A stretch of DNA of 64,000 nucleotides from Marsupella aquatica. Lineage: Eukaryota; Plantae; Marchantiophyta. The notes beneath the pieces were generated by a model. The model did not search any database. It was given only the letters and a program-made list of their open reading frames with translations, and was not told where the DNA came from. Location: positions 186,001 through 250,000 of the forward strand of contig OZ316893.1 in assembly GCA_973895155.1 (NCBI GenBank). Direction: 5' to 3'. This document shows positions 7,463 to 51,559 of the stretch, one piece after another (the stretch's first letter is position 1; every line of letters starts with the position of its first letter). The position numbers and the translations under genes are program-made.

Positions 7463-7526
7463 TAGTTAAGGCAATACACTTTAATATACTATTTAACACC
7501 AACTATAAGTTCAAAATTAAATAAAC

Positions 7527-7770
7527 TTACAAGTTAAGGCACTGTAGTACACACATCTGCAAGAGTCAGGCAGTGTACTGTTTGAGCCCAGTTGTAACTC
7601 TAAAATCAATATAAGATTACAAGTTAAGGCATTCTGGTACACACATCTACAAGGTTCGGTGTACTGTTTGACCCCAGTTGTAACACTCAAAAAATCTATA
7701 TCAGGTCATAAGTTATGGCAATTGGTACACACATATGCAAGGGTTTGAGTATTGTTTAGGGTATTGTAAC
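7527..7770. repeat. ~90-bp degenerate direct repeat, 2-3 copies
   Basis: TTACAAGTTAAGGCA...GTACACACATCT...GTACTGTTTGA.CCCAGTTGTAAC at 7527 and 7617; third diverged copy near 7708. Confidence 0.7.
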
Positions 7771-11530: not shown

Positions 11531-12621
11531 GGTACCGTTGATGTTAGGTCTGTCTGCCCTACCGTCGATTCTCAGCTACTTGTAGGGGAGGCATGACGGA
11601 CACCTCATGTAGCAAGCACAACATCTGCTTCTACCAACAACATTGTGATGACAGGTAATGCACTGCTCGCGAGTGTCGTGCAGCATGCCCTCGCGTTGAA
11701 AGGCATTGAGATGACACACCTGAGGTGGGCATTGACTGCTTCATGTGGACATTGCACCTGGGTTCGAAGTATTCCTTGCCTTGCCTTCTGAAAGCTACTC
11801 CTACAAATGCTTCACACTGCACGTGATCAATTGTCATTACTGAGAATCAGTCATGCGGAACCCGCGACCCCCAGTGAGTGTGGTGGCTCGTACATCACAC
11901 AAGATTTTGTGACTGACGAGTTATTTTTGGGCATACGGTATTCCTTCGCAGCTGTAGTGACAAGAGCACTTTGTCATGGGACACATGTACCGTTTTTTGG
12001 TAGAGTGTAAGGAGGATGTTACTCCCAATTTTGTAAAGATGTTTGTAAATTTTGGCACTTGATGTGTTGTGTTGACTGATATTTGTAAACTTTGGTGCGA
12101 ATTTAATTTCCCTATCAAATGATGCAAAAAGCAATTAATTTCCTATTAAACGATGCAAGCAATTACCTAGCATGTTCTTGCTTGGTTAAGTTCTGTGTAT
12201 TGGATACGGCAGTGAGATGATTGACTGTACTAAGATTATTACTCGCACTCTCCATTGACTGGGAATGTGACGGATGCCACAAGTTCGCAAACGGCACTAC
12301 TTTGGTTTGTTTGCTTTCGTTCCTTGGAAAGTCTACAAAAGTTCCAACCTCGACAAAAGTCTTCAAACAAGACCGATCGAGTCTGATTGAAGTCGGCAAT
12401 TAGCTGCAACTCAGGCGACTCGGTTATCACATCTGGTTCTGCAAACTCTGCTCGTAGCAGGGTCAGAACTCGGGAGGGTTTCTGGCCTGTGATCTATGCA
12501 GAATGAAGGAGGGATTGGGATAAGCTCTTAGGGCAAAGGCATTGCTTGCTCTGTTTTGTGGACACGGAGAAGTCCAACTCAATATAGTGGAGGTCTTCCC
12601 TCGCTGCTGCGATGAGGTGTA

Positions 12622-13914
12622 TTGCTGAAATTTGACAAAGAAATAGTGCGAGCTGCATTCCATCTGCCCAATGGGCAATTTGGACATTTTCGAAATTCAT
12701 GGGCGTCCGAGCAACTGGATGCCATGATTATTGTGCCTCAGAACCACACAAACCCTTGGAGTTTGGATACCCTATCGGATGTGTTCAGGCGTTGGCAGGA
12801 GCTTGTGAAGGTTGTAAACAAGCTACTTCTTGGGAAAACAAAGCCCACCCAGGTAACCGGGAAGGACATGTGGGTGTACTGGGCTTCCTGGTGGAGTACA
12901 ATCCCGGAAGAGGTTCGGGCCCAGGATGTGGAATGTCCAACTTTCAAGCCAGACTAGGCTCATTTTGTGTGGGACTGCTTGAAGGGTGAGATAGTGGCGT
13001 TGAGGAAGCAGTTGTCAGATGATAAGCTTCCGAGAATGAAACGTTATCCCTGTTACTGTGGCACGGCTGTAACGCGATTGCTCCTTCACAGTGGGTATTC
13101 CATGAGGGATCTACTTCAAAAACCCAGGAGTGCAGACGAAAGTGAGACGCGCAGTAGGCAGAGTGCTAGTGAAGCAGAGATGCGGGGTCAGAGCGTCAGA
13201 GAAGAGTATAGTATTTTCCCAATGGACGTCTGCTTTGAACCTGTTACAGCCACACCTGGAGAGAGCTGGCATCCAGTACAGGAGGTTTGATGGGTCCTTA
13301 GGGCCACTGGGGTGCCGCGGTGATGGAGGAGTTCAGGACGCGCCCGGAGGTGCGTACGTAGGGCAAGTACACCACCATACTTCAGGGTTTAGGGTCGTTC
13401 AAATTAACTATCGAACCAACTCAATTGACCGGCCTGTTTCTTACATGCTTCTTTGCCATGCAGGTGAGTGTCATTCTGATGTCCTTGCTTTCCGGAGGTG
13501 TTGTGCTGAACATCGAATACGCCAATCATGTTTTTTTCCTGGACTCTTGGTGGAATCCAGCAATGGAAGACCAGGCCGTTGGTCGAGCACATCGAATAGG
13601 ACAGAAGAAAAAAGTGTACGTGACACGAATCGTTCTAGAGGACTCGGTCGAGGAGTCGGTTTTGGAGCTGCAGGTACGTACCGGTTTCTTAAGAAGCTTT
13701 CTTCAACAATATGTTAGCTTGTATACATAGTTTGCCGAAACCCTAAACCATTCAAACTCTCTACCTTATTGTCCCACTCTTTTGACTGCAGGATATGAAG
13801 CGTAACATGGCTCAACAGCTCTACGAAGGAGGTGGGGCCGCATTCAGACCTAGTACACAATCTGACGGCGGTGTTTCGAGAGATATTGAGTACATATTTC
13901 GCCAGTCTCGCTAA
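12622..13914 (+). pseudogene. PMD/Transposase_32-like domain fused to a RAD5/RAD16-type SNF2 helicase C-terminal domain (spliced, degenerate)
   Basis: 12622..13130 aligns by eye with 28650..29157 (RAAF.LP.G, NP.SL, LLGK.KP.Q, PD(W), YCGTA.T.LLLH.G.S). It is followed by 'KSIVFSQWTSALNLL..RRFDGSL' and 'VILMSLLSGGVVLNIEYANHVFFLDSWWNPAMEDQAVGRAHRIGQKKKVYV'. GT-AG introns at ~13350..13463 and 13674..13791; last exon 'DMKRNMAQQLY...DIEYIFRQSR*' ends at 13914. TAG at 12955 and frameshifts near 13190 and 13310. Confidence 0.85.
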
Positions 13915-15349
13915 GCACCGACGGGCTTTGGAGTTAGTTGGCCGTGCACTCGCAATATCACTTGAACTGTAAAAGCTGCTGCTTGCACAATCAGGCCACA
14001 GGTTAATCCCTGGCTGTGTTGGTCTTATCGATGGTTCTTTGCTTCCCTTACCTAAACGTCCTTTTGCCCATGGGGAATGCTACTGTGGGGAAAGAGTAGA
14101 TACTCAGTCAATGTGCAGGTGGTCTGTGATAATAGCGGCGGACAATGAAATGAAATGTTTGCCTTTCCCATTTTCAAGGAATGCCTGGCTTAAGGAAATG
14201 ACCTCTTTGGAAGTTCTGCACAGATGTAAACAGTAAAATCTGGTGGGTGACACCGGGTACCAGGCTTTACCTCATGTAGTTTGTGCATTCAAGAGAGCAG
14301 ACATGGTACATGACAAAGAGGATTTCAGCACTTGGTGTGGCAGAGTGCCGTGGTACATGACAAAGAGGATTCCTCCCCTGAATTCATCTGTCCACGGTTA
14401 GATTAGATATTCAGCGACTGGAGACATCCAGACAATTGACAATTCGGAAGAAGTAAGATGTGCTTAGACATCCTTGCCTCTCTACTCTCGCACTTTGACA
14501 CGGAAACTTAGGACTGCTTTGATGCAGATGTTCCGAGAGGGAAGATTGAATTTGAGACGCCCTAGCAGTAGTAGAGCCAAGGCTAGAAAGAGCTACGGTG
14601 GCATTTTTAGATTGCAGTAAGGAGAGGAGTAAGAGGACGGCCCCCTTCTGTTTTGGCTTCTTTCGGGTGGTTCTGTTCCAGTGTGCTATAAAGCCCATTT
14701 CAATTAATCTAAAAAAAATTCAATTAATTGAAAATAATACCTCATGGCCTTTTGGTATACATGCCCCCATTTGCTTGTAGACGGGCTACCGTAGTATCCT
14801 TGAATTCTGCCTTGTTGGGAGTCTGTTTCCACGCTTTGCTGTCCGTATACTGCGCGACTCTCGTGTAGAGCCTTAAATAAATCTTTAGTGTGAAAGCGAT
14901 ATGAAAACATAATTTTACAATGAAGCCGGAACACGGCACGTGATTGGACACGGATGACTTGTTCCCGGTGCACACTTGGCCACGCGTTTGGACTAACACA
15001 ATATAGACGCATCCGTTCCCAACTTCTATGACCTCTGTGTCCTCTGTATCCTGTATACACTCTGTACCCTCGGATTTCAACTGCAAAACCCAGGTTTTCT
15101 TATGATGCAAGTTTGGCTATTCGGTTAAATCAGCTAATTCCTACATGGAAGCTGCCCCCCTGTCTCGGTGGCAAACCCAGAGCTGAGTTGCTTGCTACCC
15201 CGCTTTGAACCCTGTGGTTCTGATTCTTCTACGTGGTAGCTGAAGGAAGGCAAATACGATACTTCTACACGGTGGTCCACAGAACAAATCCAAGCCACAC
15301 AATGTACTATGATTCCCAAAACTCGAACTGTCGAAGTCTACATCAATAT

Positions 15350-18300
15350 TCAGACAATCGATTTCCTAAATAGGCTCACAACAATTCTTCTCCTAGCAGA
15401 ATCCATGTCCTGAGCCGTGAAATCAAAAACCATGTCTAAACTACGGTACTCAGCAAATTTCATGACAAATACGCCACAGTTGTAGCTGTCGGTTTGGCGA
15501 GGAATGTCCTTGCGTGCGTGCCTGGGCCACTCACGAGCCCAAAGGTGCTTCTGATTTTTGGTTCTCAATTTGTCGTCCATGTATTTCGCCAGGTTTTTCA
15601 GAACATCCGGCTCTTCACCATGAAGGGAATCCAGATACTCTAGGCATTTCTCGTTCTTGTCAATGACGACCCACGCCCAATGGCTTCCGCCATCAATGTG
15701 AATAGGGACAAAAATACGATCACAATCAAGCAAGAAATACGTCAATTTCGAGGTCCATGACTCCACCGCCGCATAATTATAACCATTCTTTGTGAGTACC
15801 AAGTAGAACCAGGTATCAAAGAAATGGCACTTGAAGACTCTCATCCGTGATCTGTCTTCCATCGCTTTGATGAGACCGAAATACGCGTTCATAACCTCGG
15901 AAGTTATCCATTCTCCTGGAGAGAGGCATCTCATTTCTTTCCGGGTTATGACGCAACCATTAGCGGTGCTGACTAAAACTGCGTCTTGATCCAAGTCAGG
16001 GCTCAGGCAGAAGTCTATGACGCCGTGGTCGTCCACCTGGTCCGGTGGAGGGTTTTCTTTTGGTGACTCATTGACAGTAGTAATGGATTTAGTTTTTTGG
16101 ACCCGGGCGCCTCTTTGAATCGCATGCTCGACGATAGTGCTATCTGATACTCCTCCTGGATGATGAACATGAGCCGCGACGACGGACTTTTCACCCCGAA
16201 CTGGGGTGCTATTATTATTATCATTGGAAAGATGATAACGCGGACGATCGATATCGCGGACGATCGATACTTGCGAGTCTCTTAACAAGGACTGTCCGGA
16301 TAATAGCCCCGCCGGCACTACTGCCCCGTCAAACGACTGAGGCACGTGGTGGTCATGACCGGCTTGCACCGCACACGAGAGCGAAGGCAGAACAGCTGTG
16401 TCTCCTTGGAGACCCTTGTCCACAGCGCTGTCCATTCGCATACTCGCAGGATAGTGACCACTGGCTGCCCTGGCATTCAAATCTTGTGTGGAGCAGCCCG
16501 GTGGTCTCCACAATGACTTTGCGAAGCTCGACACCTTGTCCAGAGACTTCATGTTCTTGGCATACGCTGTGAGGTCCATGACGTCCTCCCTGGCGGAGCA
16601 GAATGAGAAGCACTCGCGTTCCAAGAGTAGTGCATGCTTCAGAACCTGCCCCCTTGTAAAGAAATCGAGCACTATTTCCTCTTTTTTCGAGAAAACTTCT
16701 ATTATAGCTCGGATTATTCGCCCGGGCTTGATATTGGTAGTGAAGGAGCGGCCGCTGGGCGATCTGAATGGAACCCGATTTTCCAGCCTAACTTTCATCG
16801 CCGCTTGTTTGATGCTAGCCATCTCCCCATTGGGACGGTCCGTCGATTGTTCCTTGCTTGCCTTCCGGAGCTCCACTCGGTCTCCGTCTTCGAAGCTGAA
16901 ATGGCCGCTGAAATTCTTGAAATGCGCTTCCCAATCCGGTTCCCTGTCTTGGGAAACGCCGAGAAAAATCACAGTTTCCACCACACCTCTCATGTGCTGC
17001 CGCGGGAGAAGCTCAAAGGCATTCTTGAAATAGGTGCCATATTCAAGATGGGCATTATAGTTATCCGGGAGACATCGCGCCGCCTCAATGATCCATGCTA
17101 GAAGTATTCCCGGATGCACAAAAAAGGCGAGGGTCAGTGACTCGTTGGCCGGAACATTGACGACAATTTTCAGAAAATTCAATATTTCTGATTGTGTCCA
17201 CGTATTGCCCCTGGTGTGTGTCAAGTCCACGATCGCAAGAGATGCCACAATACTCTCACTACAGCTAGAGCAATCGAACGGTGGCTCGGCCGAAGCGAGA
17301 AAATTTCCAGTGTAGAAAATTTTGTAGGGATCCATCCTCGACCGAATATGTCCGCCAAACTTCTTCAGATACAGATTTCGTAGCCTATTTTTCAAAGCCT
17401 CCGGCATGTCGGCCCTCTCGGACACCTTCACCAGGCTCTTGAAATATCCGGCATCGACCAATGCGCAACAGCGATCGAGTTCGTCATTCGTAAAATCAAA
17501 CGTCCGAACGACGTCCGCCCAGAGAGCACCGGCTGAAAACAATTGGTCATAGTTTGCGCGATAGAATCGCAGGATTGCGCCTTTCAGTTTGTCCGTATAC
17601 TTTGCCTTTGCTGCCAGGTCGGACATGGTCGGCAGATCAGTTAAAGCGTGTTTCTTTCTAATCAACAGCACATCACCCGAAAGGACTTTCATTAAGATGT
17701 CGGTGATGTCGGATTCCTGCGCACCCTCAAACACTCGGAACGTACTTCCGGTTAACCTCTTTGCTTCCTTTGGTTTGTAGGTAACCTCTCCAATGTTGTC
17801 GGGCAAATGTCCTTTCAACCAACTGTTGCAAACCGCTCTCCACAGTTTGTACAGGTCTTCCGAGGCGAACAGGATCTAGTTATACTCGCTGATGGTACTC
17901 ACCTGCAGCATGAGTTTTGCAAGCGCCTCGTACTCCTGATCATTATCAATCATAAATATGTGAATCGAAGAATTACACACGCTGCGTACACTACATACCC
18001 TGCATACCCATTCAATAAAACACTTAAAAATGTAGTCATGATTTTCTGCCCACCCATCATATACATAAACACAAATCCTCCATATACTACCTGGAATTCG
18101 GTGGACTTCCGCCCAGAAGGAAGTGGACGAGCTGGACGACCCATTTCGCTGTACTGCAACCGGGCGTGCTCCACCTGATCGATGAATGGAGATGAAAACC
18201 TGTGTGCTTCGGCTTGCATGTTGTTTGCATGGGAAATCTCCACCAGAACTTGGGCAGGGATCGAACCCTTCAGGATTCGAGCCCGTCGATATTTCAGTAA

Positions 18301-20043
18301 CTTGGCTGTTTGCATCAACGCCGGTTGGGTTTGCGCACTCCTAATTATCCTCTTTGCAGCCATTGCCAAGTGTTGTCCACTGATTGCGAAATATTTTAAT
18401 TCGGACAACTTGTCGGAATCAGAATCGGAAACAGATAGGTCGATGAGTTTGTAAGCCCCGTCGATGCCAATGCTGTAGGCAACCAGATCTGCAGGTAGTG
18501 GCTCCTGACCAGCGTTGGTAATCATGAGTTCGACGAGGCGATTGACATGATTGTCATTCAGTAAACGCTCGTTCATCTTGGCTGGCGGAGTGTGGATATT
18601 GTCCACTGGAACCGCGCAAAGCGTAGATAGTCCAAAGGAATACCAACACTCGTACAACTGCAAAGTCCTCTCTACATTTTCGAGATGAGAACGATCGACC
18701 AACAATGTCGAACTATCATCCACATTCAGCTCGACGGTGTTGATCGACACCCTTTTCTTCTTCGAGACCCTGCTCGTGTGCCCTTCCTCTGTCTTTGTTT
18801 TCGCTCCACATGCTTGTTCAATGTTCTCCCCTTTGCTTCTTTTCCCCGTTTTTTCTGCCATCGCCTGAGGTTTCTGTTTTCCCGATGCCTCCCCTTTTTG
18901 TGCTTCCTTTCCTTCTTCCCTGGCTGCTGCTGCTCTCTCTCTCGTGACGACCTTTCTTTCGGCTGCTTTCCTAGACGTCTCATTCTCCGGCCCGGTCTTC
19001 GTTTGGGGTTCCTTGTCTTCGCTCCTTTCAACTTGCTGCCTCCCTCGCGTGCTTGGCACCGTCAACTGTTTATCGTCCCTATTTCTCTTTTTGCGATTTA
19101 TGAACTGATCCGGCCGTAATACCACTTCAAGCATTTCCTCCGGCACACTGCATGTACCTTCCACAACCTCATTACCCTCGAATCTGCCTGAATGAGATGG
19201 ATGACAAGGTTCCAGCTTCCTCGTTTCTGGCCCTGATTCAGACAAACGTCCAGCTTGACGAAGAACTGGATGCTTACGGATCCAAGTTTTTACAGAATCG
19301 CGACTAAATTCGTTTGTGAAAATTACAGCTTTGTCGATAGTTATCCTCTCGCGAAGCTCATCGTCACCTATGGTACGCGCCATGATGTGTGCCACCTCTC
19401 TGGTTCGGGACAGGAAAAGTCCATGCCTGTGATTCAATAAGAAGTTTACCCTTCCAAGCCCGTACAGTATATCATCACAACATATGTCACGATCCTCATC
19501 CATGAACGACTCACAAGTGGGATCAAAGAATCCGTGCGATGTGATGTTCATCCGGACATCGTACGGTTCGAGGCAATGTGCACAGCAGAATCTTCCAGCA
19601 AGTGCGACAAATTGCTTGAAACTCAAACCTTCAAGATCCTCCACCGTTATGATGAGCTGCCTCTCTCCCGGCCGCCACTTAGGATTGGCAGTTACACAGC
19701 AGTCCGCGATAGCACCAAAAGTGACCCAGCATTTCTGCTCCTTCTCGGTTGCTATGCCTCGAAGGACACACCGCCACACGCCCGTCACTTGCATCAATTC
19801 AAAAGACCATGATGGAACCGATTCAGAGATACGAGCATATCCCTTCACTTTAGGTGTCTGTAGCGCCAGATGGCTCAAATCGTAGAGAAGCGGTTCAACT
19901 CCTACGATCGAGCAAGAAGCGAAGTATTTAGATTTTAGCACCACAAGAACACGGACGAAGGTGTTTTGACACGGCAAGCCATCTAGAAAAATTGACGACT
20001 CTAAAGGATAGCAGAGATGCAAACAAACCCAAAAATGAGCCAT
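15350..20043 (-). pseudogene. Multidomain gene: ParB/DGQH-like domain, beta-class N6/N4 DNA methyltransferase-like domain and Ulp1 (peptidase C48) SUMO protease; one in-frame stop
   Basis: Exon 20043..18091 contains 'VPVDNIHTP..NERLLNDNHVNRLVELM...YFAISGQH'. A putative phase-0 intron 18090..17936 (CAG|GTAG...ATCAG|GAG) joins it in frame to the 822-aa ORF through one TAG (17876..17878). The MTase-like motifs are 'SLAIVDLTH' then 'KPGRIIRAIIEVFSKKEEIVLDFFTRGQVLKHALLLER'. Ulp1: 'WITSEVMNAY', 'PIHIDGGSHW', 'YLDSL', 'PRQTDSYNCGVFV'. Ulp1 call is strong; ParB and MTase calls are moderate. Confidence 0.7.
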
Positions 20044-23000
20044 TTCAAACCCTAAATCCTAAAGCCATTCCCATTGCCGACGATCGCCACAATGGAATAC
20101 AGTGTGCAAATATGACATAGACAACCCTAATGGGTGAGAGCTGCCTCCGCGGGCCGGAAGAAAGGCTGACAACCCTAAAACATCGCGCGTTGTATATCAT
20201 CTCATTTGCATCGCCGCCCATGGTTCTCTGCAAAAGAAGTCGCATATCCTACCAGAGAGTCGCGTAGGGTAAATGACAGATGGGGGTTTAAGACCCTACC
20301 TTCCAGTTGGATGAAAGCTTCGGTTGCCAATGCCAGAGCATCCGACACCGGCAGAGTTGTCGTCATTCATTCGCGTGATCTCCCTATTCACTGGCGAGGG
20401 TGCAAAGAGAGCACAGACACGGGCGAAAGTACGCTACGGTAGGGAGCAAGCCACAGGAAATCCACCGGAGGATGCTGTTTAAGTAGTGTTGTTTCTTACT
20501 CTCGGGGTGGGCGAACCGTAAAGTGTGGCCGATGGTTAGGTCTTTCGTGCAGCAGAAGCTGGGATGCTCCTCATGACTGCTACCAGACTGGCAATCCGCA
20601 ACCCTGCAGGCTCCATCCATCTTGGATCGCCATCGTACTCTCAATGCCCTCTTAATGCCGAGCCTCGCTTCCCGTCCGCTTCACGTATGATCTCTCATGA
20701 ATGACGGCCGAGGATAAGTTACTCCTCAGGTGCCACCTCCCAATTTTCAAGATCCAAGTACCATCAGTACTGTTCAAGGCTCCTACTTACTGTCCCTGTC
20801 ACTACCTAAAGCAGCGAGCCCAAAGTAAGTACCACGAAGCGGCAAGTAACTCAGCATGAAAAGCCGAGGCACGAGCCATCAACAGGGCATCAGCCATCAT
20901 CATTAATTTCAAGGTTTAAGAGCCTGTGGGATCTGATAGTTCGCTCATGTCGTATTAAGAACCTCATGGATCTCATTGACAGCCAATCTGAAGTTGATGT
21001 GCCTTCTCCAAGTGGTCACCATTTTTTAAAACATAGAATACCTTCTTATAACGTGCTGTAAAAAAGAAGTAACCCAATAAAAAGAAAGACATAACACCAA
21101 AAGTGAACAGAACATAGCCTAAACCCTATGGGACTGTAATATGAATGATAAGCTTCCCCCCCCCCCGCCCACATATCTTACACCACTTGGGGGCCGGGGG
21201 GCGGGGGGGGAGGGGGTGGCGGGGTATAGGTTGGTGGAGCAAGCGCATTCTCTCCTCCTCATTCTTCACTGATGCTCTCATTCACTATGTTTCTTAATCG
21301 GTGGTATCTCGTTAGTGTAGCGTGTGATCGAGTGTTACACATTTGCTGCCTAGCCTGAGTTTAATTGGAGCGGGCATGAATGGCCATAAAATCATGTCCA
21401 AAATCATCGCGCATAAAATCATTTTCATTCCATCTCGACCACCCTAAAAGGTTGAAAATAGCGGGTGCAAAGAATGTAATTACTTCTCAACAGTTATAAG
21501 AAAAAATAATCCCCAATGGGATTCTAATGGGTATAATCCTTATACCGAGCTCATCTGAGACCGCAATATGTGACTCATTTTGGCTCAAGTGACTTCATTG
21601 TGACTCAACGTGACGTGAGCCGGGCTGTGACCCTTGGTGTTTCAAAAGTTGAGACCAAAAAACAAAAGTCACTATTGATACTGGACATTGCGACTTGCTT
21701 CAATGATACCCATTTGTGACTGATCTGTGACTCCATTATGGAGTCCAGCCTTGTTGATACGTGACTGCAGTGTGACTTTAATTAGTCACAGGGTAAGAAT
21801 TTAGGGAAGTTGTAACCATGACCGATCCAGTAATGGATTATAGCAATTGTGTAAGAGTTCATAAGGAGAGATAGTCAATTCAAGAGCACTCCACATTACA
21901 ATACATAGAAACCCTAAATCATCACTTTAGAAATATATAACATATTAAATACAAGAAATAAACAGAGCATGAATGACATCCACATGAAACAAAGCATGAT
22001 ATAAGGAGGTCCTACATAAAACATTCATAAGAATTCAACAGAATCACAATATTGCTGAAAGATGATGATCAATTCAATTACAATGGAACAGTTTACAATG
22101 TCGTCAACGTAATTCAGAGAAAACAGGAACTTGTAAACTGAAAATTGTTTGAAATGATTGAAAGCAAATGCATGTTACTATCAATTATCAAGCATGATAA
22201 TGCATTGCTTCTTGAATTCTAAAATCTACAAAACATGACAGTGGTGGACCTTGCCACCCAGCACCCTCACCAATCCCAGCACTCATGCCTCCACAGAATA
22301 CCTCGAGCAAGCATCCTAGGGCCCCTTGCACCACCAGCGGCCCCTCCCATACAAAGCCGCACTTGCTCTCCTACACGACCGCTACTCAACGGTCCTCACT
22401 GTCTGCACAAGCAAACAAGCACCTCAGTAAGTAACCCTTCAAGATCTAGAACTCGCCAAGTCTAGCATCCTAACTCAAGCTCAACAGAAATTGGTAAATA
22501 GGTCAGCGATAGGTCCTCCTGATGCCATAAGCGAGAACCAGAACCCACACCCACTGTTCGTCCAGAACAGCTCCTTCCTTGGGCGTAGCCAGGGTTCCCC
22601 CTCGTACCTATCCATCACCAACTGACAGCCCTGACCCCAGGACATGCTCATGGCCCAAATAGTGTACCTTGTCCTAAAGCTTGTCCTAAAAGCTTGTCTA
22701 GCAACCAACTCCCGATTCGCCTCACTAATGGCCTAGGGACCGAGTACTCTTGGAACTCAACCTCCACACCTACTTGGCCTTGCCTCCCCAACACAAGCTC
22801 CCTTGGGAGACTGAACACGGCTTGGCTGCTGTTCGGCAGGATTTGGTAAGCGGGCGAGTTAACACCAGCAAACCCCAAGAACCCATGGTGCCCCCAGACC
22901 CAGCTGAGCTCAGGAGGGCTACAGCTTTCCAACGCACCAAAGAAGTACTCCAAGAAGTTGTCATTTTGTGGTCGAGGCATTTGGTCTGCATACAATCAAG

Positions 23001-23310
23001 ATACTCAAGGCCCTAACCCTTCAATAACAAAATTTTTAATCAGAACGGAAAAAGATGTTCAATTCCTCTTTTTTTCTAAAATTCTCAAGCATTTTTTAAA
23101 CACAAATCGAGATGTTTGTTTCAGTCAGCATAGAAGGAATAGGTTGTGTGTACTTCTTACTTAGGTACGTTAGGCGCGATATTAATTAGGAACTTATTAC
23201 GTTATGGGACCCAAAAATGCCTCCAATAGTTTTTCTTCACAAGGTACTGTGCAGATCATTTGTATCGTGCCCAGATTTATATTGTGGTTTGACACACCTA
23301 GTAGCGCGCC

Positions 23311-23715
23311 GTGATGAGAATTATGCGGGTAGCTATGTGTTTCATGCCGGGTGGAGGTTGTATCACCTGCAATTCGACAACTGCATGTGGTGTTGCATCG
23401 TCTACTACCGAGGCCGAGTACACGCCTGCCTGTGAGGTAACTAAGGCACTGATCTGGCTACGGAGATTGGAGAGCCGTGGTGTTTGTATGGCAGTCAAAG
23501 TGCATTGCACTTGGCAAAGACACACCGTGTTCCACGCCAGGACAAAGCATGTTCACATTTGTTACAACTTCACTTCATCCGTGATGCGATTGACAAATTT
23601 GCGTCGACGAGGAAAACACAGAGGAGTTTAGAGCTACGGTAGCTGGTGTGTGGATATGATTAATCTTAGATATTTTACATCACTCATTGTGCAAACTGGA
23701 CTGAGAGTGGAGATG
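23311..23715 (+). mobile_element. Ty1/copia RNase H remnant
   Basis: 'GVASSTTEAEYTPACEVTKALIWLRRL...VFHARTKHVHICYNF' matches Copia RNase H motifs (S.TEAEY, FH.RTKH); purine-rich PPT-like tract at ~23699..23715. Confidence 0.75.
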
Positions 23716-25657
23716 GTTAGGATTTCAATCGACTTCCCCAATACGGAAGTTTGGACATTCATTGGAGACTAGGAAAGGATCCACTAACTTTCGACCCACT
23801 CAGCTTAGCATCCCTCGCCTGGAGGGTAGACCGAGGTTATCCATTGGATGTGTGTCGTTGGTTTAGAGACCGACCGACCAAGTGTACTCTCATCTACACA
23901 TTTATTAAACTCACATACACAAGGTGGAATCCTCAAGTTACAATCATAGATAACACACAACACAGTACGCACACAATGAACGAGGATGTCAATTGGATCC
24001 ACGATCGCTCTGTACTTGCCCGACATTCATTGTCCCCCTGTTCCACCAAAAGACCATGCTAAACATGCTACTCCTACCCAATGACGCAATTCCACTCCAG
24101 TGGCCTGAGGTAGATGATCCCACCCCGCACAATTCCCCAAACTCCACCCGCACAATTCGCACGGCCCCTAAACCCTAAATTCCCAGCCAGCTCTTCCGAC
24201 ACTCTTACCCACTCGCCGCAAGCTCCTTGGGGTTATAAATTTCTTCACCTATAACTAGCAACAACCTCCTTGGGAAGTTCTTCACCTATTTAACTAGGAA
24301 CTACTACTAAAGTCTAAAAATTGCAGAGTATTCTTTGTTACCGTCCAGTCACGCCTAATGTGCGGTATTATTACTCTGTGAGAAATTTACTCATCAAAGC
24401 GAACTAAACACTTTCACTAACGACAAGCAACGCTTATGCGATTTACCTGTTTCGGTTCTTTCTTTTATTTCTTTACTTAATTTTACATTCTTCGACTAAG
24501 TTAGTTCATTTCATGCAATGGGGAAGAAAATTCCAAGTTCACACCACAAAACACATCATGACCCTGAAGTCAATGCGCAACCCACTCAACATTAGGAAAT
24601 GATGTGAGCTTTAGGGTTTTACTTGGTCATCTCAACATTAGGAAATGATGTGAGCTTTAGGGTTTTACCTGGTCATCTGCCAAAATGCCCCCAAAACATT
24701 CGGAATCACCACTCTCCCTCGACAACATCCAGAATAGACCTTTCCGTTGATGTTGGTAAACTGTCACATTTTGCATAAGCCCATCTGGTGGGCTTGCTTC
24801 TCCTGTGAAGTCCCTATCATCGATGTATTCCTGCAATGGTCATGGAATAACAGTCAGCCTTCTTAACCGGCTCTGCTCATCTAAACTGAGTATTTGGACA
24901 AGACGCTGCGACATGGTTAGTTTACTCACTCGTTCCTCTGTTTGCGAAAAAGGTTGGACTCGAACTCGGGGAAAGTCCATCTCTGAATCTGAATCTGAAT
25001 CGGAACAGGAATCTGCGGTTGTACGACGCACGGAGGTAGCGTCAATGTCAACATGATCAAGCTATCCCCTTCATTATCAAAAGACCACAACAGTCGTTGC
25101 CTTTTTGGGGGGTCCTCCAAATTAATACGAGTCAATTGCGAGACCACAGACAGAGAACAACTTGCAGTCTCATCCCTCTGTACTCAATTTTTACATGGCA
25201 CTGTTGTCATTTCATTGTTGGAGGTTGAACCAAGTAATGGACGTCCATGAGCTTGCCTCTTTGGTTCCGCGATGAACGATATAATTGGTTCAGCGTTTGA
25301 CACCTGCTTTCTCTTCAAATTCCTCACTGTACATTCCAACTCTTCAACCTTTGCAAGAGCTATGTGCAATTGGTCATCCTTGAATTTTAATTCTACTTTC
25401 TGAGTCGAAACTATTTGTTGCAAGTCTACTTCTCGCCCAATCTACAATGCACCTGTTCAAGCTCTGCCATTGTACGCTCTAAGTCCAATTTCAAAGACTC
25501 CACGTTAGTGCGCTGAGTATTGCGTTTGGCAGTGCACTTTGCTACCTCATTTCTCAGTTCCCCCATGCACATTTTGTTCTCCTTCAAAGCTTTGTGAGCA
25601 ACTGCGTATTCCGCCTTCAGCCTTGTCTATTCTACAAGTGCTCGTTGAAGGTCTTCC

Positions 25658-27044
25658 TGTCGTATAGTGCTAAGTATCAAAAGTGACTCTCCTCACCTAA
25701 AACCAGGGTTTCGATCCCTTTAAGAACAGATTTCAGAATGAATTGTATAACTTTTATCACTCCGAGTGATTTAGAGTCTTGAGCTCTATGTTGACTTCAC
25801 TTCTCAATAAAAAAATCGAATAAACAAACAACAAAGTAACTGAACTTCTGATTTATGAATTAGAGAAGAAATGAGTAAGGATTTAGAGACTACAAGCTAC
25901 TGCCACTCCTTCAGAAAGGATTTGGGCTCAGTATAGACATGAAATCTATCTCATAATTCATCCATCTCACTCTTCAAAACACAAAGGTTAATGATAATGG
26001 AATTCTCAATCTGATGAAGCAGAAGCTTTCTGATTGCAAATGAATGATATGATTTAAAATGCCGTCAACATGGTTTGACATCAGCGATACGCAATTCAGT
26101 CAAACTCTAAACCATATTCCAGAATCAAAGCAACAGTACTAACTACTCTGAGAATCAGAATTTACTTCTCATTTATCATTAACTATTCTTGAATTGGCTA
26201 GCGAATCCCGACTCTGCAAGCAAGCCTAGCAGTGAATTCAATACGAGTTTCAGAAATCTGCAACTGAATTCAATCACCACAGGAATCTCTTGAATTCAAT
26301 CTTAACTTCAATCAATATAGCTTTACTTCCATACAAAACACTCACAGCATGCCTTGTTACAATGGAAGGAGGAGAAAACTATTCAGAAGACTCAATTCTG
26401 AATACAGTATTAACTCTATTTCTCTCTACTTCAAATGAGCATTCTACTCTGTCTTATAAGTGCTGGAATCCTAAAATGGAGGAGGTAAGAACAGTCGTGC
26501 CTTTCCAAGCTTAAAACTAAACAAGGGAGAAGCACAGCATAAGTACTTCAACAAGGGTGGTAGAATACTACTTTACTAGTAATCTACTTCAAAAACTAAG
26601 TGTTGAGCGGACGCTGCTAGAAGCGTCGGGAGAATCTGGACGCTGCTAGAAGCGTCTTAAGTAAAACCAACGGACGCTGCTCACACTGCTCACAGCGTCA
26701 ATACTAGGGTGGACGCTGCTCACAGCGTCGTGTGTTGAAGCTGACGCTTTCCACAGCGTCGGTCGAAATCCTCATAGAGTCTTGGTGGCGGTCGGGCACT
26801 GCCAAAAGCGTCATGAGGAGGTTGGACGCTTCCGCAGCGTCTTGAGTAAAAGAAACGGGCGCTGGTCACAGCGTCGGGCAAAGTACACTAGGAATCGTCA
26901 GGAAAGCCGGAGATGTCAAATATTTCTATAAGTGTCCAGAACAAGTAAATGTTGGCCGGAAGGTGTCTAAAGTGTAAGTAAATCTTGTGATATGCTAAAA
27001 ATAAACAAGTTTCCAGAAAAAATTGCAGGGACACCCATACCACA
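25658..27044. mobile_element. Solo LTR (1387 bp) with 5-bp TSD CTTCC
   Basis: Begins TGTCGTAT (25658), ends ATACCACA (27044); CTTCC at 25653..25657 and 27045..27049; excision restores the host reading frame. Confidence 0.85.
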
Positions 27045-27239
27045 CTTCCAACTTGCTCTGTGACTCTAATCTCAACAACTGAAGTTGTGTGCTCACATCA
27101 TCTCGTTGTTTAGTGCACCCTGCAAGTTCACTTTCCAATTCTTCCATGCGCATTTGGATATCCTTCAAAGCACATTCAGCACCTAAACATGATTCCATGT
27201 GCACTGCCTGCTCTACAAGCTTTCGTTGAACATCTTCAA

Positions 27240-28560
27240 ACTTGCTTTCTGACGACAATTTCAACAACTCAAGTTCATTGATCGCGGCATCTCGTGCTGC
27301 AACACACCTTTCAAGGTCAGCACTCAATTCTGCCATGCGCGATTGGTCCTCCTTCCAACCTTGTTCAGCAGCTTGGTAATTGTCATTGCGCTTTGTCACT
27401 TGCACAAGCTTTTCTTCAAGGTCTTTCAACCTGCATTGTGACTACAATTTGAACTCTTCAAATTTGCTGGTGACCGCATCTCGTTTTGCAGTGCCCATTT
27501 GAAGTTCAGCACTCAGTTCTGCCATGCGTGATTGGTCCTCCTTCCAACCTTGTTTAGCAGCTTGGTAATTGTCATTGCGCTTTGTCACTTGCACAAGCTT
27601 TTCTTCAAGGTCTTTCAACCTGCATTGTGACTACAATTTGAACTCTTCAAATTCGCTGGTGACCGCATCTCGTTCTGCAGTGCCCATTTGAAGTTCAACA
27701 CTCAGTTCTGCCATGCGTGATTGGTCCTCCTTCCAACCTTGTTCAGCAGCTTGGTATTCGTCATTGCGCTTTGTCACCTGCACAAGCTTTTCTTCAAGGT
27801 CTTTCAACTTGCATTGTGACTGCAATTTGAACTCTTCAAATTTGCTGGCGATAGCATCTCGTCCTACAGTGCCCATTTGAAGTTCAGCACTCAGTTCTGC
27901 CATGCGCGATTGGTCCTCCTTCCAACCTTGTTCAGCAGCTTGGTATTCGTCATTGCGCATTGTCACCTGCATAAGCTTTTCTTCAAGGTCTTTCAACCTG
28001 GACTGTGACTGCAATTTGAACTCTTCAAATTTGCTAGTGACCGCATCTCGTTTTGCAGTGCCCATTTGAAGTTCAACACTCAGTTCTGCCATGCGCGATT
28101 GGTCCTCCTTCCAACCTTGTTCAGCAGCTTGGTATTCGTCATTGCGCTTTGTCACCTGCACAAGCTTTTCTTCAAGGTCTTTCAACCTGCATTGTGACTG
28201 CAATTTGAACTCTTCAAATTTGTTGGTGATCTCATCTCGTCTTGTAGTGCCCATTTGAAGTTCAACACTCAATTCTGCCATGCGTGATTGGTCCTCCTTC
28301 CAACCTTGTTCAGCAGCTTGGTATTCGTCATTGCGCATTGTCACCTGCACAAGCTTTTCTTCAAGGTCTTCTAACCTGCATTGTGACTGCAATTTGAACA
28401 CCTCAAATTCTCTGTTGACCGCATCTCGTCCTGCATTGCACATTTCTTGTTCAACACTCAAATTTGCCATGCACGATTGGTTCTCATTCCAACCTTCTCC
28501 AGCATCTTGGTATTCGTCATTCCGCGTTGTCTGTGCCGTCAACTCCCCTTCAAGGTCATC
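27240..28560 (-). repeat. 189-bp coding tandem repeat (63 aa = 9 heptads), about 7 units
   Basis: GTCTTTCAACCTGCATTGTGACT-type motif recurs at 27421, 27610, 27799, 27988, 28177 and 28366; unit 'QSQCRLKDLEEKLVQVTKRNDEYQAAEQGWKEDQSRMAELSVELQMGTAKRDAVTSKFEEFKL'. Confidence 0.95.
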
Positions 28561-30200
28561 AATCCTGCCTTCTAACTTTGATTCCGATGACTGAAGTTTA
28601 CATTTAATAGGTTGAGGTTGGGTTTCCCTTCTTGTAGTACCCTCGTTGCCAACATTTGGCCCGGATATAAGGCTTTCCCATGAAAATCCCCAATGTAGCA
28701 GCAACTGTGTAATAGCAGTCCCACAATAAGCGGGGAATGCCTTTGACTCACGAACATTCCTCATACCCTGAAGGTGTTTCTTGAATTTATTTATTTCCAA
28801 AGCCAATTCATCATAAACTAAGTCACTCCAATCTGGTAGCAATTTTGGCATAGGGCCTGCTAGTCTTTTTCCCTTCGGCAAAGTACCACACAAATACCAG
28901 TAAAAGTAACTCAATTGTTTTGCTGATAACTGTGAAGGCTTCTCCTTACCTAGCAGAATTTCCTGCACCACTCTAATTGCCCCAGACCATCTATCATACG
29001 GAGCTCTCAAAAGCTTTAAGCTATAGGGATTCCCTCTTATTCGTGGACGAACAAACAATTCATTGAATTCAGGACAGTGCATTCTCTGCCTGTACTTGGC
29101 GAATGTACCATACGGCAGCTTGAATGCCGCACGTAACACATTTTGTGTGATTTTCAATGAACGCCCTCAAAATTCACTGGATTTTGATGCATAATCAAAT
29201 CCCAACACAAACTCCTTCACCCCACATACGGCTGTTATGTTGTAATCAATCCCAAAAGTTTGTTGCAGACCAAGGTTGCAAATCATTGATGATCGAGTTT
29301 GTCACGTCGTAGGCTTCGGTTTTAACTCAGACTTCAGCTTAGACGGGCACATCCCTCGTAAATCTGAGGGTTCGGGCAGGAAGGGAAGCACGTAATGCAC
29401 CTTATTCTCGTAAACTAGCGCTAAGTGCGCATACTGCTAAATACAGACACCTCCTAGGTATGGTTTGTGTTCCGCCGCCGGAACGTACCTTAGTCGATAG
29501 CAGGATCGACCCCGGCTTAAGGGCTTCTAAGCCTTCGTGCTGTCTGCCTTCGATCCGGATTCGATGATACAGGTCCTCAACCCGTGCTCGCAACCACTTA
29601 CCCGCAGGCTGCACCCTGTGCACGTCTCGGGTAGTGCGTTCGGCCCGGCGCTGCCACCCATATACGAGAAACCCACACACATATGCGCACACATGCATAC
29701 AATCTCGATTTACACGAAGGAAAAATGATGGGAAAGGATTTTTACTACAAAGGGAACATATGCGTACACTTAGTTGACACGACAGCCCTGGAATGCACAG
29801 GTTCAAGGCCAAGGGTGCACACTACAACGGAGCCCGGCTCCGCACTCGCTCGGCAAGCTTAGTCCTACCCCCTCCCCTTGGTACTCTGTCATTCCCAGAG
29901 GTCGGGACTCCCCGCATGTCCCGCGGATGTCCGACTCTGAAACTAAAAACCCCCCCCCCGCCTCTACCGAGGGGTGCACTAAATACTAAGAGCCGAGGAA
30001 CGGGGTGTCCTCCCGCCGAAGATTCGCTGACCAAGGTCCTAACTAAGCTGACAGTCAGGCCGGAAAACGGCTGTGTCTTATTAGAAGATCCTAATCTACG
30101 CAGGCTGGACAGCAGGGCAGCGCTGCCGTACCTAAGGCAGGTGCCTGTCCCAAGAGCCTGACCAAGCCAATCCTAATCCTAATCTATTCCTACTCCGCCG

Positions 30201-32849
30201 CTAATGCCTGGCACGCTTGCCAGAGCCGCCCGAATGGGAACGGCCATCCTGCTGTCTTCGAAGCCTGTCATTGTCCGCTTTGAGGAGCTGGACCTGGTCC
30301 AACAGAGATTCGTTCTCTCGCCTCGCCGCGTCCGTCTCCTCTGCTGCCTCCTGACATGCCTCCTCCAGCTGCTGGGCGTCGCTCGCCAGTTTACTCGCCA
30401 GCTGGTCCTGCTTCTCGGCCTCGATTTGGAGCCGCGCCATCTCGGCCTGCAGTGTGGCTATCTCTGTCGCGTCCCGCTGGGCTCGCTCCTCGGCCTCCTC
30501 CAGGTCTTTCTGCCAGGTGACAGCTTGTTTCTTCAAACTGTCAATCTGGTTCCGGAGTCGTGTAATCTCGGCCTCGTTCCCAGCTTTGGCCTGTTCGGCT
30601 AGGGCGGTAAGAGCGTACGCCTTTGCTAACAACTCATCGGCGGCTGCAACCTTGGGTCGTAGTTGCAGAAGCTCAGCCTCTTGAGCCGCCACTTCGTTCT
30701 TTAGGTACACGGACTCCACCCGGTACCGCTCTATCCTCTGAAGGGCCTCCGACTGGGCCCGCCCTGCCTTTACGGCGGCAACCAACTCCTGATTGAAGAA
30801 ACAGGCTACCTTCCGAGCCATGAACTCCCCGGTATCCCGGGCAATTTGATGAGAGAAATCTCCCAGAAGCGCGTTCAGAAACGTACCCTGTACGAAGAGT
30901 TCCGGGTGGTCCAAGTTATGCCTGTCCGGATTTGGGCACGGGCAGACATCAACACGCGCAGGGGCCGGGGCAGTGACGTCCAGCCCTGGGGACATAACGT
31001 TGGAAGGGGCCGGAGTATCCTCCTGCAGTGATGTCCGGTTCTCCGGAATTGCCACCGGCGGGTCCTTGGGAGACCCGGGTTCGGGTAAGACCTCTGCCGT
31101 ACCAACTTCTGTACTTAGCCCGGCTAGTTGGGTCGCATCAACGGTTGCGACGACCGACCCCTCCGGCGCCTCCTCGGTTACGATTACAGCTATTTGTGGA
31201 GGTGGGGTGGGTGAAGCTGGCGTGTCCACTGGACTTCGGGCCTCGGGTTGGGGTCGTCTCTCCAATGCCGGAAAAACCCACCTAGCTGGGACCAGCTTTG
31301 TAACGTTGATGCGGGGAAGGGTTTGTCGATCAAACCGGGCATACCACTCAAGAATGATTTCGATGTGGCTAGCGAAATACGCCTTCCCGCCAATGTACAA
31401 CGTCTTCCTTCGCCGCTCCATCTCTTCATGGAATTTCTTAGCGAAGTACGACGCCCACTTCCTAGGTCGATAGTTCTCGACCTGGATGACCTGGGCGGCG
31501 GAGATCTCCCCCCGGGGTTCCATCAAGTGGAGAGCGTACCTCTGGAACTCCAGCCGCTCAGCTATCTTGGGCATGAGGCAGGTCCTCATCACGAACCCGT
31601 TGTCTACTGATCCCTCTGAGGGAAAACTTGAAGATTGGTACTTGGCCCCCTTGCCCCCGGGAGCCCGTGATTCGACTCGATGGTCACCTTCGGGTAACCC
31701 GAAGATCATCTTGAGCCGTTCTTCTGTGAGGGACATATTCCTTCCCCGCAGCCGAGTCTGTTGACGTACGTCGTCATAATTCTTGACGAATTCTGTCATG
31801 TCCTCCCCGTAGTACCTGCAATTATTCCAGGGGAGAGAGGCGAGGTGCTCAAATCCCTGAGTCTTCAGGTACACCGCATGCTTGGGATGGAGGATGTTGC
31901 TGTGAACGTTTTCCCCCATGCAATGCATCGTTACCTTGGCTACGGCTACCGTGGCCAACGGTAACCCGGATGCACTGGCGGATTCCTTTCTCTTCTTTCC
32001 CCGTGACTGACTCGGGGAAGGTGATACTTCCCCATCCTCCCGATCGGGCCTGGGGAGTGCCACTGCGGTTGGTAACGGGCCCGGGGCGGCCACGGTCACC
32101 ATGTTGTCTGCTGGGGCCGCTCCTGGGGTCAGAGCAGGGGTTGGGGACGGTATAGTGTCGGCCCCCCGAGCGCTTGTGCCTCTGGGCCGCCTGGTCAAGG
32201 GTGGGGTAGCCTCGTCGTCATCGCTAAGATCTACAGCGTTGATGACGGAGCGTACCTGTGCTGGCTGGGTGATAGGTGGTGGGGTTTGGCTAGGCTGCGG
32301 CTGAGGCTGAAGCTGAAGCTGAGGTTGCATGGGCACGGGTACGGGTACGGGTACGGGTACGGGTCCGGCTGAGTTGGTCATGTTGGTTGATGGCCGAGTT
32401 CCCATGAAGCTCCGTAGGTGCTGGTAGAAGTTCTCCGAAGCGAGTGCGGACGCCCTTGTCGAACGGTTGGTACTGGACTCGCCATTAATGACTGCCCAAA
32501 CCTGGGCAGGGATGTGGTCGAAGTGATGTCGCTGCAGGTCGATTGTACCCGGGATATTGAAGACCTCGTCCGGAAGCCGAAGCAATGCTTCCCAGAACCC
32601 GATATATTTGTCTCCATCAAAGAAGTACCCAGATACCTCAGCTGGTCGGTAAAGCTCGCTCTGAGACGGGTAGTCAAAGTTAAGGACGTAGTGGTGTCGT
32701 CCTGCTAGGCAGATGGCTCTCTCGTATTCGCGTTCGATCTCGTATCGGCGCGGGTTGGCGTGTTTCAATGAATCGGCCAAGTGCCTTCCGGTAGATAGGA
32801 ACTGCGTCCAGAATCGAATGGCCGAGCTGGAGAGGATCGTGTGCGACAT
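30201..32849 (-). CDS. LTR-encoded 882-aa protein: N-terminal globular module, Pro/Gln-rich linker with NLS-like RGKKRK, PMD/Transposase_32-like domain, C-terminal coiled coil
   Basis: Uninterrupted ATG-to-stop ORF wholly inside the LTR; 'GFEHLASLPW...MTEFVKNYD...LRGRNMSLTEERLKMIFGLPEG...KWASYFAKKFHEEM...AYFASHIEIIL'; heptads over the last ~180 aa; ends GKRARH. Confidence 0.85.
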   Translation of the reverse strand: MSHTILSSSAIRFWTQFLSTGRHLADSLKHANPRRYEIEREYERAICLAGRHHYVLNFDYPSQSELYRPAEVSGYFFDGDKYIGFWEALLRLPDEVFNIPGTIDLQRHHFDHIPAQVWAVINGESSTNRSTRASALASENFYQHLRSFMGTRPSTNMTNSAGPVPVPVPVPVPMQPQLQLQPQPQPSQTPPPITQPAQVRSVINAVDLSDDDEATPPLTRRPRGTSARGADTIPSPTPALTPGAAPADNMVTVAAPGPLPTAVALPRPDREDGEVSPSPSQSRGKKRKESASASGLPLATVAVAKVTMHCMGENVHSNILHPKHAVYLKTQGFEHLASLPWNNCRYYGEDMTEFVKNYDDVRQQTRLRGRNMSLTEERLKMIFGLPEGDHRVESRAPGGKGAKYQSSSFPSEGSVDNGFVMRTCLMPKIAERLEFQRYALHLMEPRGEISAAQVIQVENYRPRKWASYFAKKFHEEMERRRKTLYIGGKAYFASHIEIILEWYARFDRQTLPRINVTKLVPARWVFPALERRPQPEARSPVDTPASPTPPPQIAVIVTEEAPEGSVVATVDATQLAGLSTEVGTAEVLPEPGSPKDPPVAIPENRTSLQEDTPAPSNVMSPGLDVTAPAPARVDVCPCPNPDRHNLDHPELFVQGTFLNALLGDFSHQIARDTGEFMARKVACFFNQELVAAVKAGRAQSEALQRIERYRVESVYLKNEVAAQEAELLQLRPKVAAADELLAKAYALTALAEQAKAGNEAEITRLRNQIDSLKKQAVTWQKDLEEAEERAQRDATEIATLQAEMARLQIEAEKQDQLASKLASDAQQLEEACQEAAEETDAARRENESLLDQVQLLKADNDRLRRQQDGRSHSGGSGKRARH

Positions 32850-32950
32850 TCAGAGGAGATAGTAGTGGCGATCTAAAGAGAACGAGAGAGCTGGGGTCGA
32901 AGCTGGCGCGCGGACTGATGGACTGGTGCACTACAAAGGGTTGGCTCCCC

Positions 32951-32957
32951 TTTTATA
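32951..32957 (-). promoter_or_regulatory. TATA box of the LTR promoter (TATAAAA)
   Basis: Minus-strand GTATAAAAGGGG ~100 nt upstream of the LTR-ORF ATG; conserved in the 5' LTR (~43107..43113) and in the related fragment (~51022..51028). Confidence 0.65.
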
Positions 32958-33282
32958 CTTTGAGGGCTTGTCGATCCCCGACGTCTCCTCGACGCCCATA
33001 GGTTGAACCGCTCACGCTTGTGGTGTACCGGCCACTCCGCCGGTCTGAGTCAGCGTGCGTCAGTGGCCGCTTCCTTAAGTTCGTTATACGGACCCGAGGG
33101 AGGGGCCCCTCCATGCTCATAACCCGGGTGTGCGAATAGCGACCCGCCGCCAGCCCGAACCTGAAGTCCCCCTTATTGCCTAATGATGTCCTACCCCTAA
33201 TGATTACCTAAATACTGTCGTTATGCTAATAATAGCGGCCTAAGACCCACCTAACGCGCGTGCCGAGCGCAGTTAGACTGAA

Positions 33283-39200: not shown

Positions 39201-39338
39201 AGATCCCGGGGGTATGTTCATACGTCGGGATGATTGCGAGTCCTCCGAGCCCGACGAGTCGGAGCTTGTTGTGGTTGCACTTTCTCGTTCGCTGGTCAAT
39301 CTCCTCAAGTAAGCTGCTTGAGAACCAGTGACGGGCAT
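33283..39338 (-). pseudogene. gag-pol polyprotein (Gag with three Zn knuckles, protease, RT, RNase H, integrase), inactivated
   Basis: Knuckles CSKCFQSGHVVQEC, CYNCEKPGHFAREC and CQVCKTEAHSTANC; protease VLVDGG; RT 'QDYRKLN', 'MPFGLCNAP', 'FIDDF'; RH 'YVDVS', 'NYSPTDRE'; INT HHCC, 'WGIDYIGP', 'SDRG', 'WLGPF'. Broken by a 62-bp duplication (~37244..37367) and stops at 35758 and 35317, with pol segments all in one frame. Integrase reads into the 3' LTR. Confidence 0.95.
33316..33330 (-). other. Candidate polypurine tract (AAGCAGGGAG)
   Basis: Short purine-rich run on the minus strand immediately before the 3' LTR; imperfect. Confidence 0.45.
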
Positions 39339-39430
39339 TTACTCATATAAATGCAATGGTTAGTACTACGTCCTGATGTATCCTGCCTAGGTGAATACGC
39401 ACATGTCTCCCCTCTACGATATGTAGAGTG

Positions 39431-39449
39431 CCCCCTCCATCTAGCGCCA
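39431..39449 (-). other. Primer-binding site TGGCGCTAGATGGAGGGGG
   Basis: Begins with TGG about 12 nt inside from the 5' LTR; resembles the TGGCGCTAGA-type PBS of plant Tat/Athila-group elements. Primer tRNA not determined. Confidence 0.75.
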
Positions 39450-39461
39450 AAACAAAGGCTA

Positions 39462-47575: not shown

Positions 47576-47715
47576 AGAGATTTCCAGCAAAAACTTGTAA
47601 GAAAATTGCAAGACGTGAGGTGCTCAACAGTTTTTTGTGTCTTGGCCAGTCTTGGGAGGCCATAGGCATTCGTCTATTTGCAGGACGTTTGTTAGCTTTT
47701 TTGGGTTTGCATAGA

Positions 47716-51367: not shown

Positions 51368-51559
51368 CGCGATGAAAGTGCAACCAGATTTCAGGAAACC
51401 AGATTTCAGGAAATTCTTAAAGGTCCACCTCAGCATTGTGGATGTGCTACGGTGATGGGGCGACGAGTTGAGTTGGCTGCAAGGGTGATGATTGAAGTTA
51501 GAAGCACTCAATGGTGGCTAGATCAGATGAAGGTAGGAAGTCCATTTTGTGAGCAAAAC

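Follow-up and report, generated by a model that had tools for sequence, protein, structure and literature searches.

The DNA analyzed is a stretch of 64,000 nucleotides from Marsupella aquatica (Marchantiophyta; NCBI GenBank assembly GCA_973895155.1, contig OZ316893.1, positions 186,001 to 250,000 of the forward strand), referred to below as the window and numbered from its first letter. On its minus strand, at 29300..43471, lies a long terminal repeat (LTR) retrotransposon of the Ty3/gypsy type. Most of each LTR is filled by an open reading frame (ORF) of 882 codons, and the central domain of the encoded protein is predicted to share the fold of VANC21, the DUF1985/DUF287 protein of Arabidopsis VANDAL21 Mutator-like transposons. 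The element is inserted into a gene whose module is very probably a distant relative of this domain, and a paralogous module was found in a second gene, at 12.6 kb in the window. Pieces of an SNF2 remodeller lie downstream of both modules.

The placement in Ty3/gypsy is based on the gypsy order of gag, protease, reverse transcriptase, RNase H and integrase, on the TG...CA ends of the LTRs and on a 5-bp target-site duplication (29295-29299 and 43472-43476). Comparison of the window with itself showed the LTRs to be direct repeats of about 4 kb with 99.3% identity. Since they differ by 29 substitutions and one 6-nt indel, the insertion is young. The ORF is open in the 3' LTR (29300..33315, minus strand, 4,016 nt), where it occupies 30201..32849 on the same strand. 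The copy in the 5' LTR (39462..43471, minus strand, 4,010 nt) is stopped prematurely at codon 63, and the pol frame of the element has two in-frame stops. Its primer-binding site and the end of its integrase resemble those of the Tat/Athila lineage, to which the element may belong. A 62-bp tandem duplication is present at its gag/pol junction (37244-37374). An older fragment of the same LTR family, 80% identical and carrying ORF codons 1-168, was found at 50428..51368 on the minus strand. It is part of an older remnant (47700-51368) that also holds a minus-strand piece resembling gag by eye and, on the plus strand, a coiled-coil-like ORF of 304 amino acids (aa) at 48594-49508.

The LTR ORF encodes, in order, an N-terminal domain, a Pro/Ser linker that includes a basic motif (aa 285), the VANC21-like domain (aa 310-523; 31281..31922, minus strand), a further linker and a C-terminal coiled-coil-like region at about aa 720-870. 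A TATA-like box at 32951..32957 (minus strand), 108 nt upstream of the ORF start, would be the LTR promoter; the LTR ORF would therefore be the first gene on the element RNA and be retained by every solo LTR. The ORF is under purifying selection and is a real gene. Its codons 1-168 were compared with the older LTR fragment over 165 codons, a region that represents the N-terminal domain and not the VANC-like one, and the nonsynonymous and synonymous divergences (dN and dS) were 0.117 and 0.917. Among the best-supported family variants within the ORF, seven of nine were synonymous. A full HMMER search with aa 310-523 gave 41 relatives at E <= 0.001, one of which shares the architecture of the LTR ORF over aa 8-436. 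Within this domain family the columns R395, R432, R437 and R446 are conserved as K or R (69-91% K/R). The LTR domain matched no Pfam family at E <= 5, and none of the 30 relatives scanned (of the 41) matched a relevant Pfam family at E <= 0.05.

The LTR domain was modelled with AlphaFold2 from an alignment with 34 of the 42 family sequences, which gave a predicted local distance difference test score (pLDDT) of 90.7 (89.6-90.7 over five models). Foldseek ranked the VANC21-DNA chain 9lnj_A first with a template modelling (TM) score of 0.45 and E 0.9, the other listed rows reaching a TM of at most 0.19. Direct alignment with VANC21 in VIA-align gave Z 7.8 and an rmsd (root-mean-square deviation) of 4.1 over 193 aligned residues. 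When 48,161 chains of the PDB were searched, VANC21 was the sole match with Z >= 5 (Z 7.5, rmsd 4.2, 194 aligned) and the runner-up had Z 2.7. The match joins residues 1-205 of the model to chain residues 303-585; it covers the whole LTR domain and stands far above the background Z. A viral fold library gave nothing at E <= 0.001, and a PDB sequence search with the family profile gave no relevant match. The look-alikes named by language-model features were DUF1985, Transposase_32, ATHILA and the plant mobile domain (PMD) (0.81), which serve as leads only.

Based on the model, the LTR domain likely adds to the known VANC/PMD/Transposase_32 superfamily a new branch that is borne by an LTR, and it is likely a DNA-binding anti-silencing factor. 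The initial annotation had described one PMD/Transposase_32-like module common to the LTR ORF and the genes. The first part of this description holds at the superfamily level because the LTR domain matches the VANC21 fold and VANC and the PMD of MAIN/MAIL1 are published structural homologues (PMC13547354; bioRxiv 2024.09.27.615353). It does not hold as membership of Pfam families: neither the three modules nor the 30 scanned relatives matched PF10536, Transposase_28, Transposase_32 or ATHILA ORF1.

The module of the interrupted gene is located at 28660..29299 on the minus strand, with the gypsy insertion at its N-terminal edge and an in-frame stop at 29167-29169. The module of the 12.6-kb gene is at 12616..13119 on the plus strand; its N-terminal part was undetected, and it has an in-frame stop at 12955-12957. 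All ten motifs quoted in the initial annotation were present, in the LTR ORF at 31793-31359 and again in the other LTR at 41955-41521 (both minus strand), in the interrupted gene at 29214-28708 (minus strand) and in the 12.6-kb gene at 12625-13074 (plus strand). Two residues that were given there in brackets, R and W, are in-frame stops in this assembly. In contigs from four public runs (two studies), the stop of the interrupted module is a sense codon in all four, and that of the 12.6-kb module is a sense codon in two, retained in one and without cover in one. A tblastn search for the 12.6-kb module's N-terminal portion in a different frame, where it had been suggested by eye, did not find it. 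Aligned with each other, the two gene modules have 35% identity over 180 aa (E 9e-37), and by sequence they are clear paralogues.

The relationship of the gene modules to the LTR domain was found to be much more distant. BLAST of the LTR ORF against the interrupted-gene module gave a single block of 38 aa (E 1e-4). In hhalign the 42-sequence LTR family aligned with the two modules over 145 columns at a probability of 59% (E 9e-5, score 35.3), while the maximum was 21.3 among 100 column shuffles and 16.6 for the reversed control. With a hidden Markov model (HMM) of the two modules, 16 of the 42 LTR family members scored higher than the 99th percentile of 840 shuffles; the top member reached 23.8 bits compared to a decoy maximum of 5.0, and the best rows fell in one register. 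With a profile of the 27 longer relatives, from which the LTR of the window was excluded, the modules scored 30.3 and 24.0 against maxima of 17.1 and 19.5 in 25 shuffles per module. The first motif block thus appears, with statistical support, to be shared by the LTR domain and the gene modules. The W..F and 'SHIEII/CGTAIT' blocks align in a global alignment without support of their own.

Scores above all shuffles in these three designs make it rather improbable that the gene modules have no relationship with the LTR domain and that a short helix-hairpin-helix match arose by chance or convergence. Such an origin would agree with the absence of a BLAST match between the LTR ORF and the 12.6-kb module (best E 2.2) and with the C-terminal halves, which alone scored 10-12 in hhalign, under the shuffle maxima of about 17, and so no better than shuffles. 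It would also agree with the dependence of the hhalign probability on the input, which ranged from 4.7% (without the N-terminal 44 aa) to 59%. The link between modules and LTR domain depends on 40-90 columns, and in a database of billions of sequences a score of 23.8 bits would fall short of significance. On the other side, LTR domain and gene modules lead independently to Transposase_32-type clusters by language-model features (0.86 for the gene module, a lead only), and the helix order of a weak model of the interrupted module follows that of the LTR model. This weak model had a pLDDT of 51.8 (three-row alignment, N-terminal 44 aa missing), and VANC21 was outside its 50 top ranks in both searches, a result that at this confidence carries no information either way. 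On the sequence comparisons, we consider the gene modules very probably true homologues of the LTR domain, as a distant sister branch. The identity between them is about 19% and the N-terminal motif is the sole one shared, which fits ancient common ancestry. The module common to LTR ORF and genes is therefore borne out as profile similarity, above all shuffles, of the N-terminal half, and not by the C-terminal halves or by BLAST to the 12.6-kb module. The same figures leave the proposed shuttling of the family between LTR and genes without support; nothing points to a recent transfer.

Word-based protein searches with the gene modules (281-895, 332-2000 and 33-331 aa) found no relatives among 321, 3,874 and 453 candidates, which is weak evidence of absence; of the 114 and 86 pattern matches from metagenome scans, none was confirmed. 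At 1676-3238 (plus strand) an ORF of 400 aa, with a coiled-coil-like ORF behind it, was noted by eye as a possible fourth, more distant member of the module family. It had no Pfam match, and its hhalign scores against the LTR family (18.8-21.9) lay inside the range of the shuffles or at its edge.

Downstream of the interrupted module we found coiled-coil-like tandem repeats of 189 nt (63 aa) each, with in-frame stops (27045..28577, minus strand). They are followed by the first exon of an SNF2 ATPase domain (24672..24839, minus strand; PF00176 positions 1-25 of 290, E 0.02), which ends at a GT donor. The exon is about 3.8 kb downstream of the module with intervening stops, and it gave no PDB match at E <= 1; later SNF2 exons of this gene were not found in the window. 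In the 12.6-kb gene a RAD5-like helicase C-terminal lobe (13130..13679, plus strand, two exons with a further frameshift; PF00271 E 1.5e-8) lies directly after the module in a different frame, and its best PDB match was RAD5 (E 6e-19). No SNF2 ATPase N-lobe was present upstream of it, and neither a RING nor middle SNF2 exons were found in the window. The genes had been described as SNF2-fused. SNF2 pieces are indeed found downstream of both modules, but the window contains no intact fusion and neither copy is in frame, which speaks against the proposed fusion. The two broken copies hold complementary SNF2 ends, and therefore a parent gene of the form module-coiled coil-SNF2 is suggested. The 5' flank of the interrupted gene has a stretch that had seemed helicase-like, but it had no hit in the searches and was discarded.

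Both copies are pseudogenes of apparently multi-copy, transposon-like units, and the working host genes that had been assumed are not supported. In one run (X1) the depth of the interrupted module was 245 compared to about 25-45 for contigs; the helicase exons were contained in a contig of 4,665 nt at a depth of 1,308, and a contig at a depth of 1,024 in X1 contained part of the neighbouring Ulp1/methylase gene, contig depth not being equal to copy number. From these data, each module appears to exist in several copies, and a diverged family of greater depth appears to share the helicase exons and the Ulp1/methylase gene. In three of the four runs the match of a listed contig ended exactly at the gypsy insertion point while the contig continued, as would fit element-free copies. 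Together with an array of 116-bp repeats just upstream of the interrupted gene, the depths make the module genes resemble the cargo of a large DNA transposon. Convincing terminal inverted repeats of such a host transposon were not found.

We also considered that the module-SNF2 genes could be a host defence, in which a domesticated VANC-like reader joined to an FRG1/2-like remodeller silences transposons as a counterpart to the LTR protein. In keeping with this, the helicase piece resembles RAD5, the RAD5/16 paralogues FRG1 and FRG2 take part in RNA-directed DNA methylation (PMC6747262), and 11 of the 16 listed differences between the interrupted module and other copies are synonymous, as under purifying selection of the module. 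However, both copies are broken, and the depth-based signs of several near-identical copies, along with the contigs at depths 1,308 and 1,024, are more typical of transposon cargo, so that we regard a defence function as quite unlikely.

The arrays upstream of the interrupted gene are at 44124-45883 (116-117 bp), 46139-46802 (108 bp) and 51563-52027 (111 bp); by analogy with VANDAL they are candidate targets of the gene module. The large Ulp1 gene (15350-20058, minus strand; PF02902 E 5e-34), with a weak N6/N4-methylase match (E 0.002-0.004), is likely transposon cargo. An upstream stretch of it looks ParB-like but had no match in the searches. Behind the helicase exons, a decayed frame at 13800-14400 (plus strand) resembles by eye a PIF/Harbinger DDE transposase, with no matching Pfam family. 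Very deep repeats in all four runs were seen at 21266-23835, past the last exon of the interrupted gene, and at 25378-26900, between its exons.

The LTRs of the gypsy element differ in depth from its interior. LTR bins were far deeper than internal bins in all four runs (in X1, 17,600-51,000 compared to mostly 2,400-9,500, read with the same caution as other contig depths), which hints at a large family with many solo LTRs. Because the LTR copies are so many, the insertion into a gene with a distant relative may be due to chance.

Altogether, we tentatively favor, at somewhat short of an even chance, that the LTR protein acts as a VANC-like reader and guards its own family against silencing. 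The proposal starts from an ORF that each LTR carries behind a TATA-like box and that is kept by purifying selection, with a central domain predicted to have the VANC21 fold. Transcription from the LTR promoter would let full elements and solo LTRs alike produce the protein, which would enter the nucleus, dimerise through its coiled coil and bind DNA. By analogy with VANC21 it would bind a short motif in the DNA of its own family, keep host methylation off and so may counter silencing of the family in trans. The gene modules would likely stem from a fusion of the form module-coiled coil-RAD5/16-like SNF2, present here in broken copies and carried by a large, low-copy mobile unit; in the fusion, the module would direct the remodeller to DNA. 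The initial annotation had proposed a silencing/anti-silencing effector family, and the anti-silencing idea gains real support from the match of the LTR domain model to VANC21 alone.

Several observations weigh against a protective role. The sequence identity to VANC21 is 8-10%, the Z of 7.5-7.8 is in the middling range of the tool, the Foldseek E-value was 0.9, and a shared fold by itself shows no function. The direction of the effect is not fixed by the fold because the superfamily includes the host MAIN/MAIL proteins, which support silencing or oppose Polycomb (PMC5418596; bioRxiv 2024.09.27.615353). The ratio of observed to expected CpG was 0.87-0.96 in the gypsy element and 0.49-0.51 in the two gene modules; the high CpG content is compatible with anti-silencing, but the youth of the element alone may explain it, and the nearby Ulp1 gene also has a high ratio (0.98). 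In the 1.37 kb of non-coding LTR of one copy no 6-8-mers exceeded the shuffle maxima, a test that dispersed or degenerate motifs escape, and there was no tandem array, unlike in VANDAL targets.

A DNA or chromatin binder that activates its own LTR or tethers integration, without removal of methylation, appears unlikely to us, although the LTR ORF is directly behind the TATA-like box and no chromodomain was among the five best Pfam matches shown for the integrase ORF. Two insertions of the family (29300-43471 and 50428-51368) in or upstream of one module-bearing gene could reflect tethering, but in a family of such great abundance they are unsurprising. PMC4408406 and PMC11728184 call the functions of extra ORFs unknown, which leaves room for such a role; counter to it, the sole solved structural match is an anti-silencing factor. 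The protective reading and its alternatives concern different parts of the locus and are not mutually exclusive.

Two further features were noted in the rest of the window. An ORF of 1370 aa, of PPR-DYW type by eye (57527-61639, minus strand), contains eight repeats of 303 nt that are 87-95% identical to the first, and the array is a recent internal expansion; the gene presumably resembles bryophyte editing factors. Copia-like remnants were seen at 9400-10800 (plus strand, by eye) and at 54900-55900 (minus strand; DUF4219 E 6e-4, copia gag E 0.08).

The function of extra ORFs in plant gypsy elements is a question raised in PMC4408406, PMC11728184 and PMC12844716, and sequence-specific anti-silencing is in the literature surveyed shown for VANDAL DNA transposons alone. 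With an LTR protein that has a predicted VANC21 fold and is invisible to Pfam, a single domain and a single 4-kb target make the extra-ORF question testable. Such a protein also bears on the order of origin of the retrotransposon PMD and host MAIN (PMC5418596). PMC4408406 describes moss Tat-like elements as appearing without extra ORFs; a location of such ORFs within the LTR would explain this. The SNF2 fusions suggest a route from a DNA reader to chromatin change, and a sister-branch fusion of RAD5/16 type would, if true, show how readers change chromatin. It is conceivable, though rather doubtful, that a retrotransposon of a non-seed plant carries VANC-type anti-silencing in its LTR, that each full element or solo LTR would act as a promoter-plus-protector cassette protecting in trans, that the fold is far older than the dicot VANCs, and that a sister branch was fused to a RAD5/16-type remodeller.

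In comparison with known systems, the gene modules recall the RAD5/16-like SNF2 remodellers FRG1 and FRG2 by the RAD5-matching helicase C-terminal lobe and the first SNF2 exon after a paralogous module. Unlike in those remodellers, only fragments are present, with the module and coiled-coil repeats in front. In the literature surveyed, the subscription papers (Steinbauerova 2011, Tanaka 2026) being outside its scope, neither an ORF of VANC fold within an LTR nor its fusion to SNF2 was seen to be reported. Gypsy elements of seed plants are known to carry extra ORFs with PMD or Transposase_32 domains (PMC4408406; PMC5418596; PMC11728184), the PMD survey of PMC5418596 being one of angiosperms. 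Athila ORF1/Transposase_32 (PF03078, PF20167) is likewise an extra ORF of gypsy elements (PMC11728184), and these are the nearest named clusters by language-model features (0.81, 0.86). It is described 5' or 3' of gag-pol, whereas the LTR ORF is part of the LTR and copied with it. The extra ORFs of Tat/Ogre gypsy elements with PMD-A plus a coiled coil, compared here together with MAIN/MAIL1 (PF10536), are also gypsy accessory ORFs in which the domain is followed by a coiled coil (PMC4408406; PMC5418596); the LTR ORF differs by its sense orientation inside the LTR and by the lack of a PF10536 match. The closest likeness in predicted structure is to VANC21 (PDB 9lnj, 9lnk), which recognises a motif of nine bases and removes methylation from its own family (PMC5735166), belongs to proteins described as dicot-specific and has a predicted dimerising coiled coil (PMC13547354). 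The LTR protein differs from it in being encoded in a retrotransposon LTR and not in a DNA transposon of the VANDAL type, in a domain without a Pfam DUF1985 or DUF287 match and in an LTR without a tandem motif array. Like VANC21, it is a transposon-encoded accessory protein, and the two are joined by a predicted fold match over the whole domain and by a coiled coil, predicted in VANC21 and coiled-coil-like in the LTR protein.

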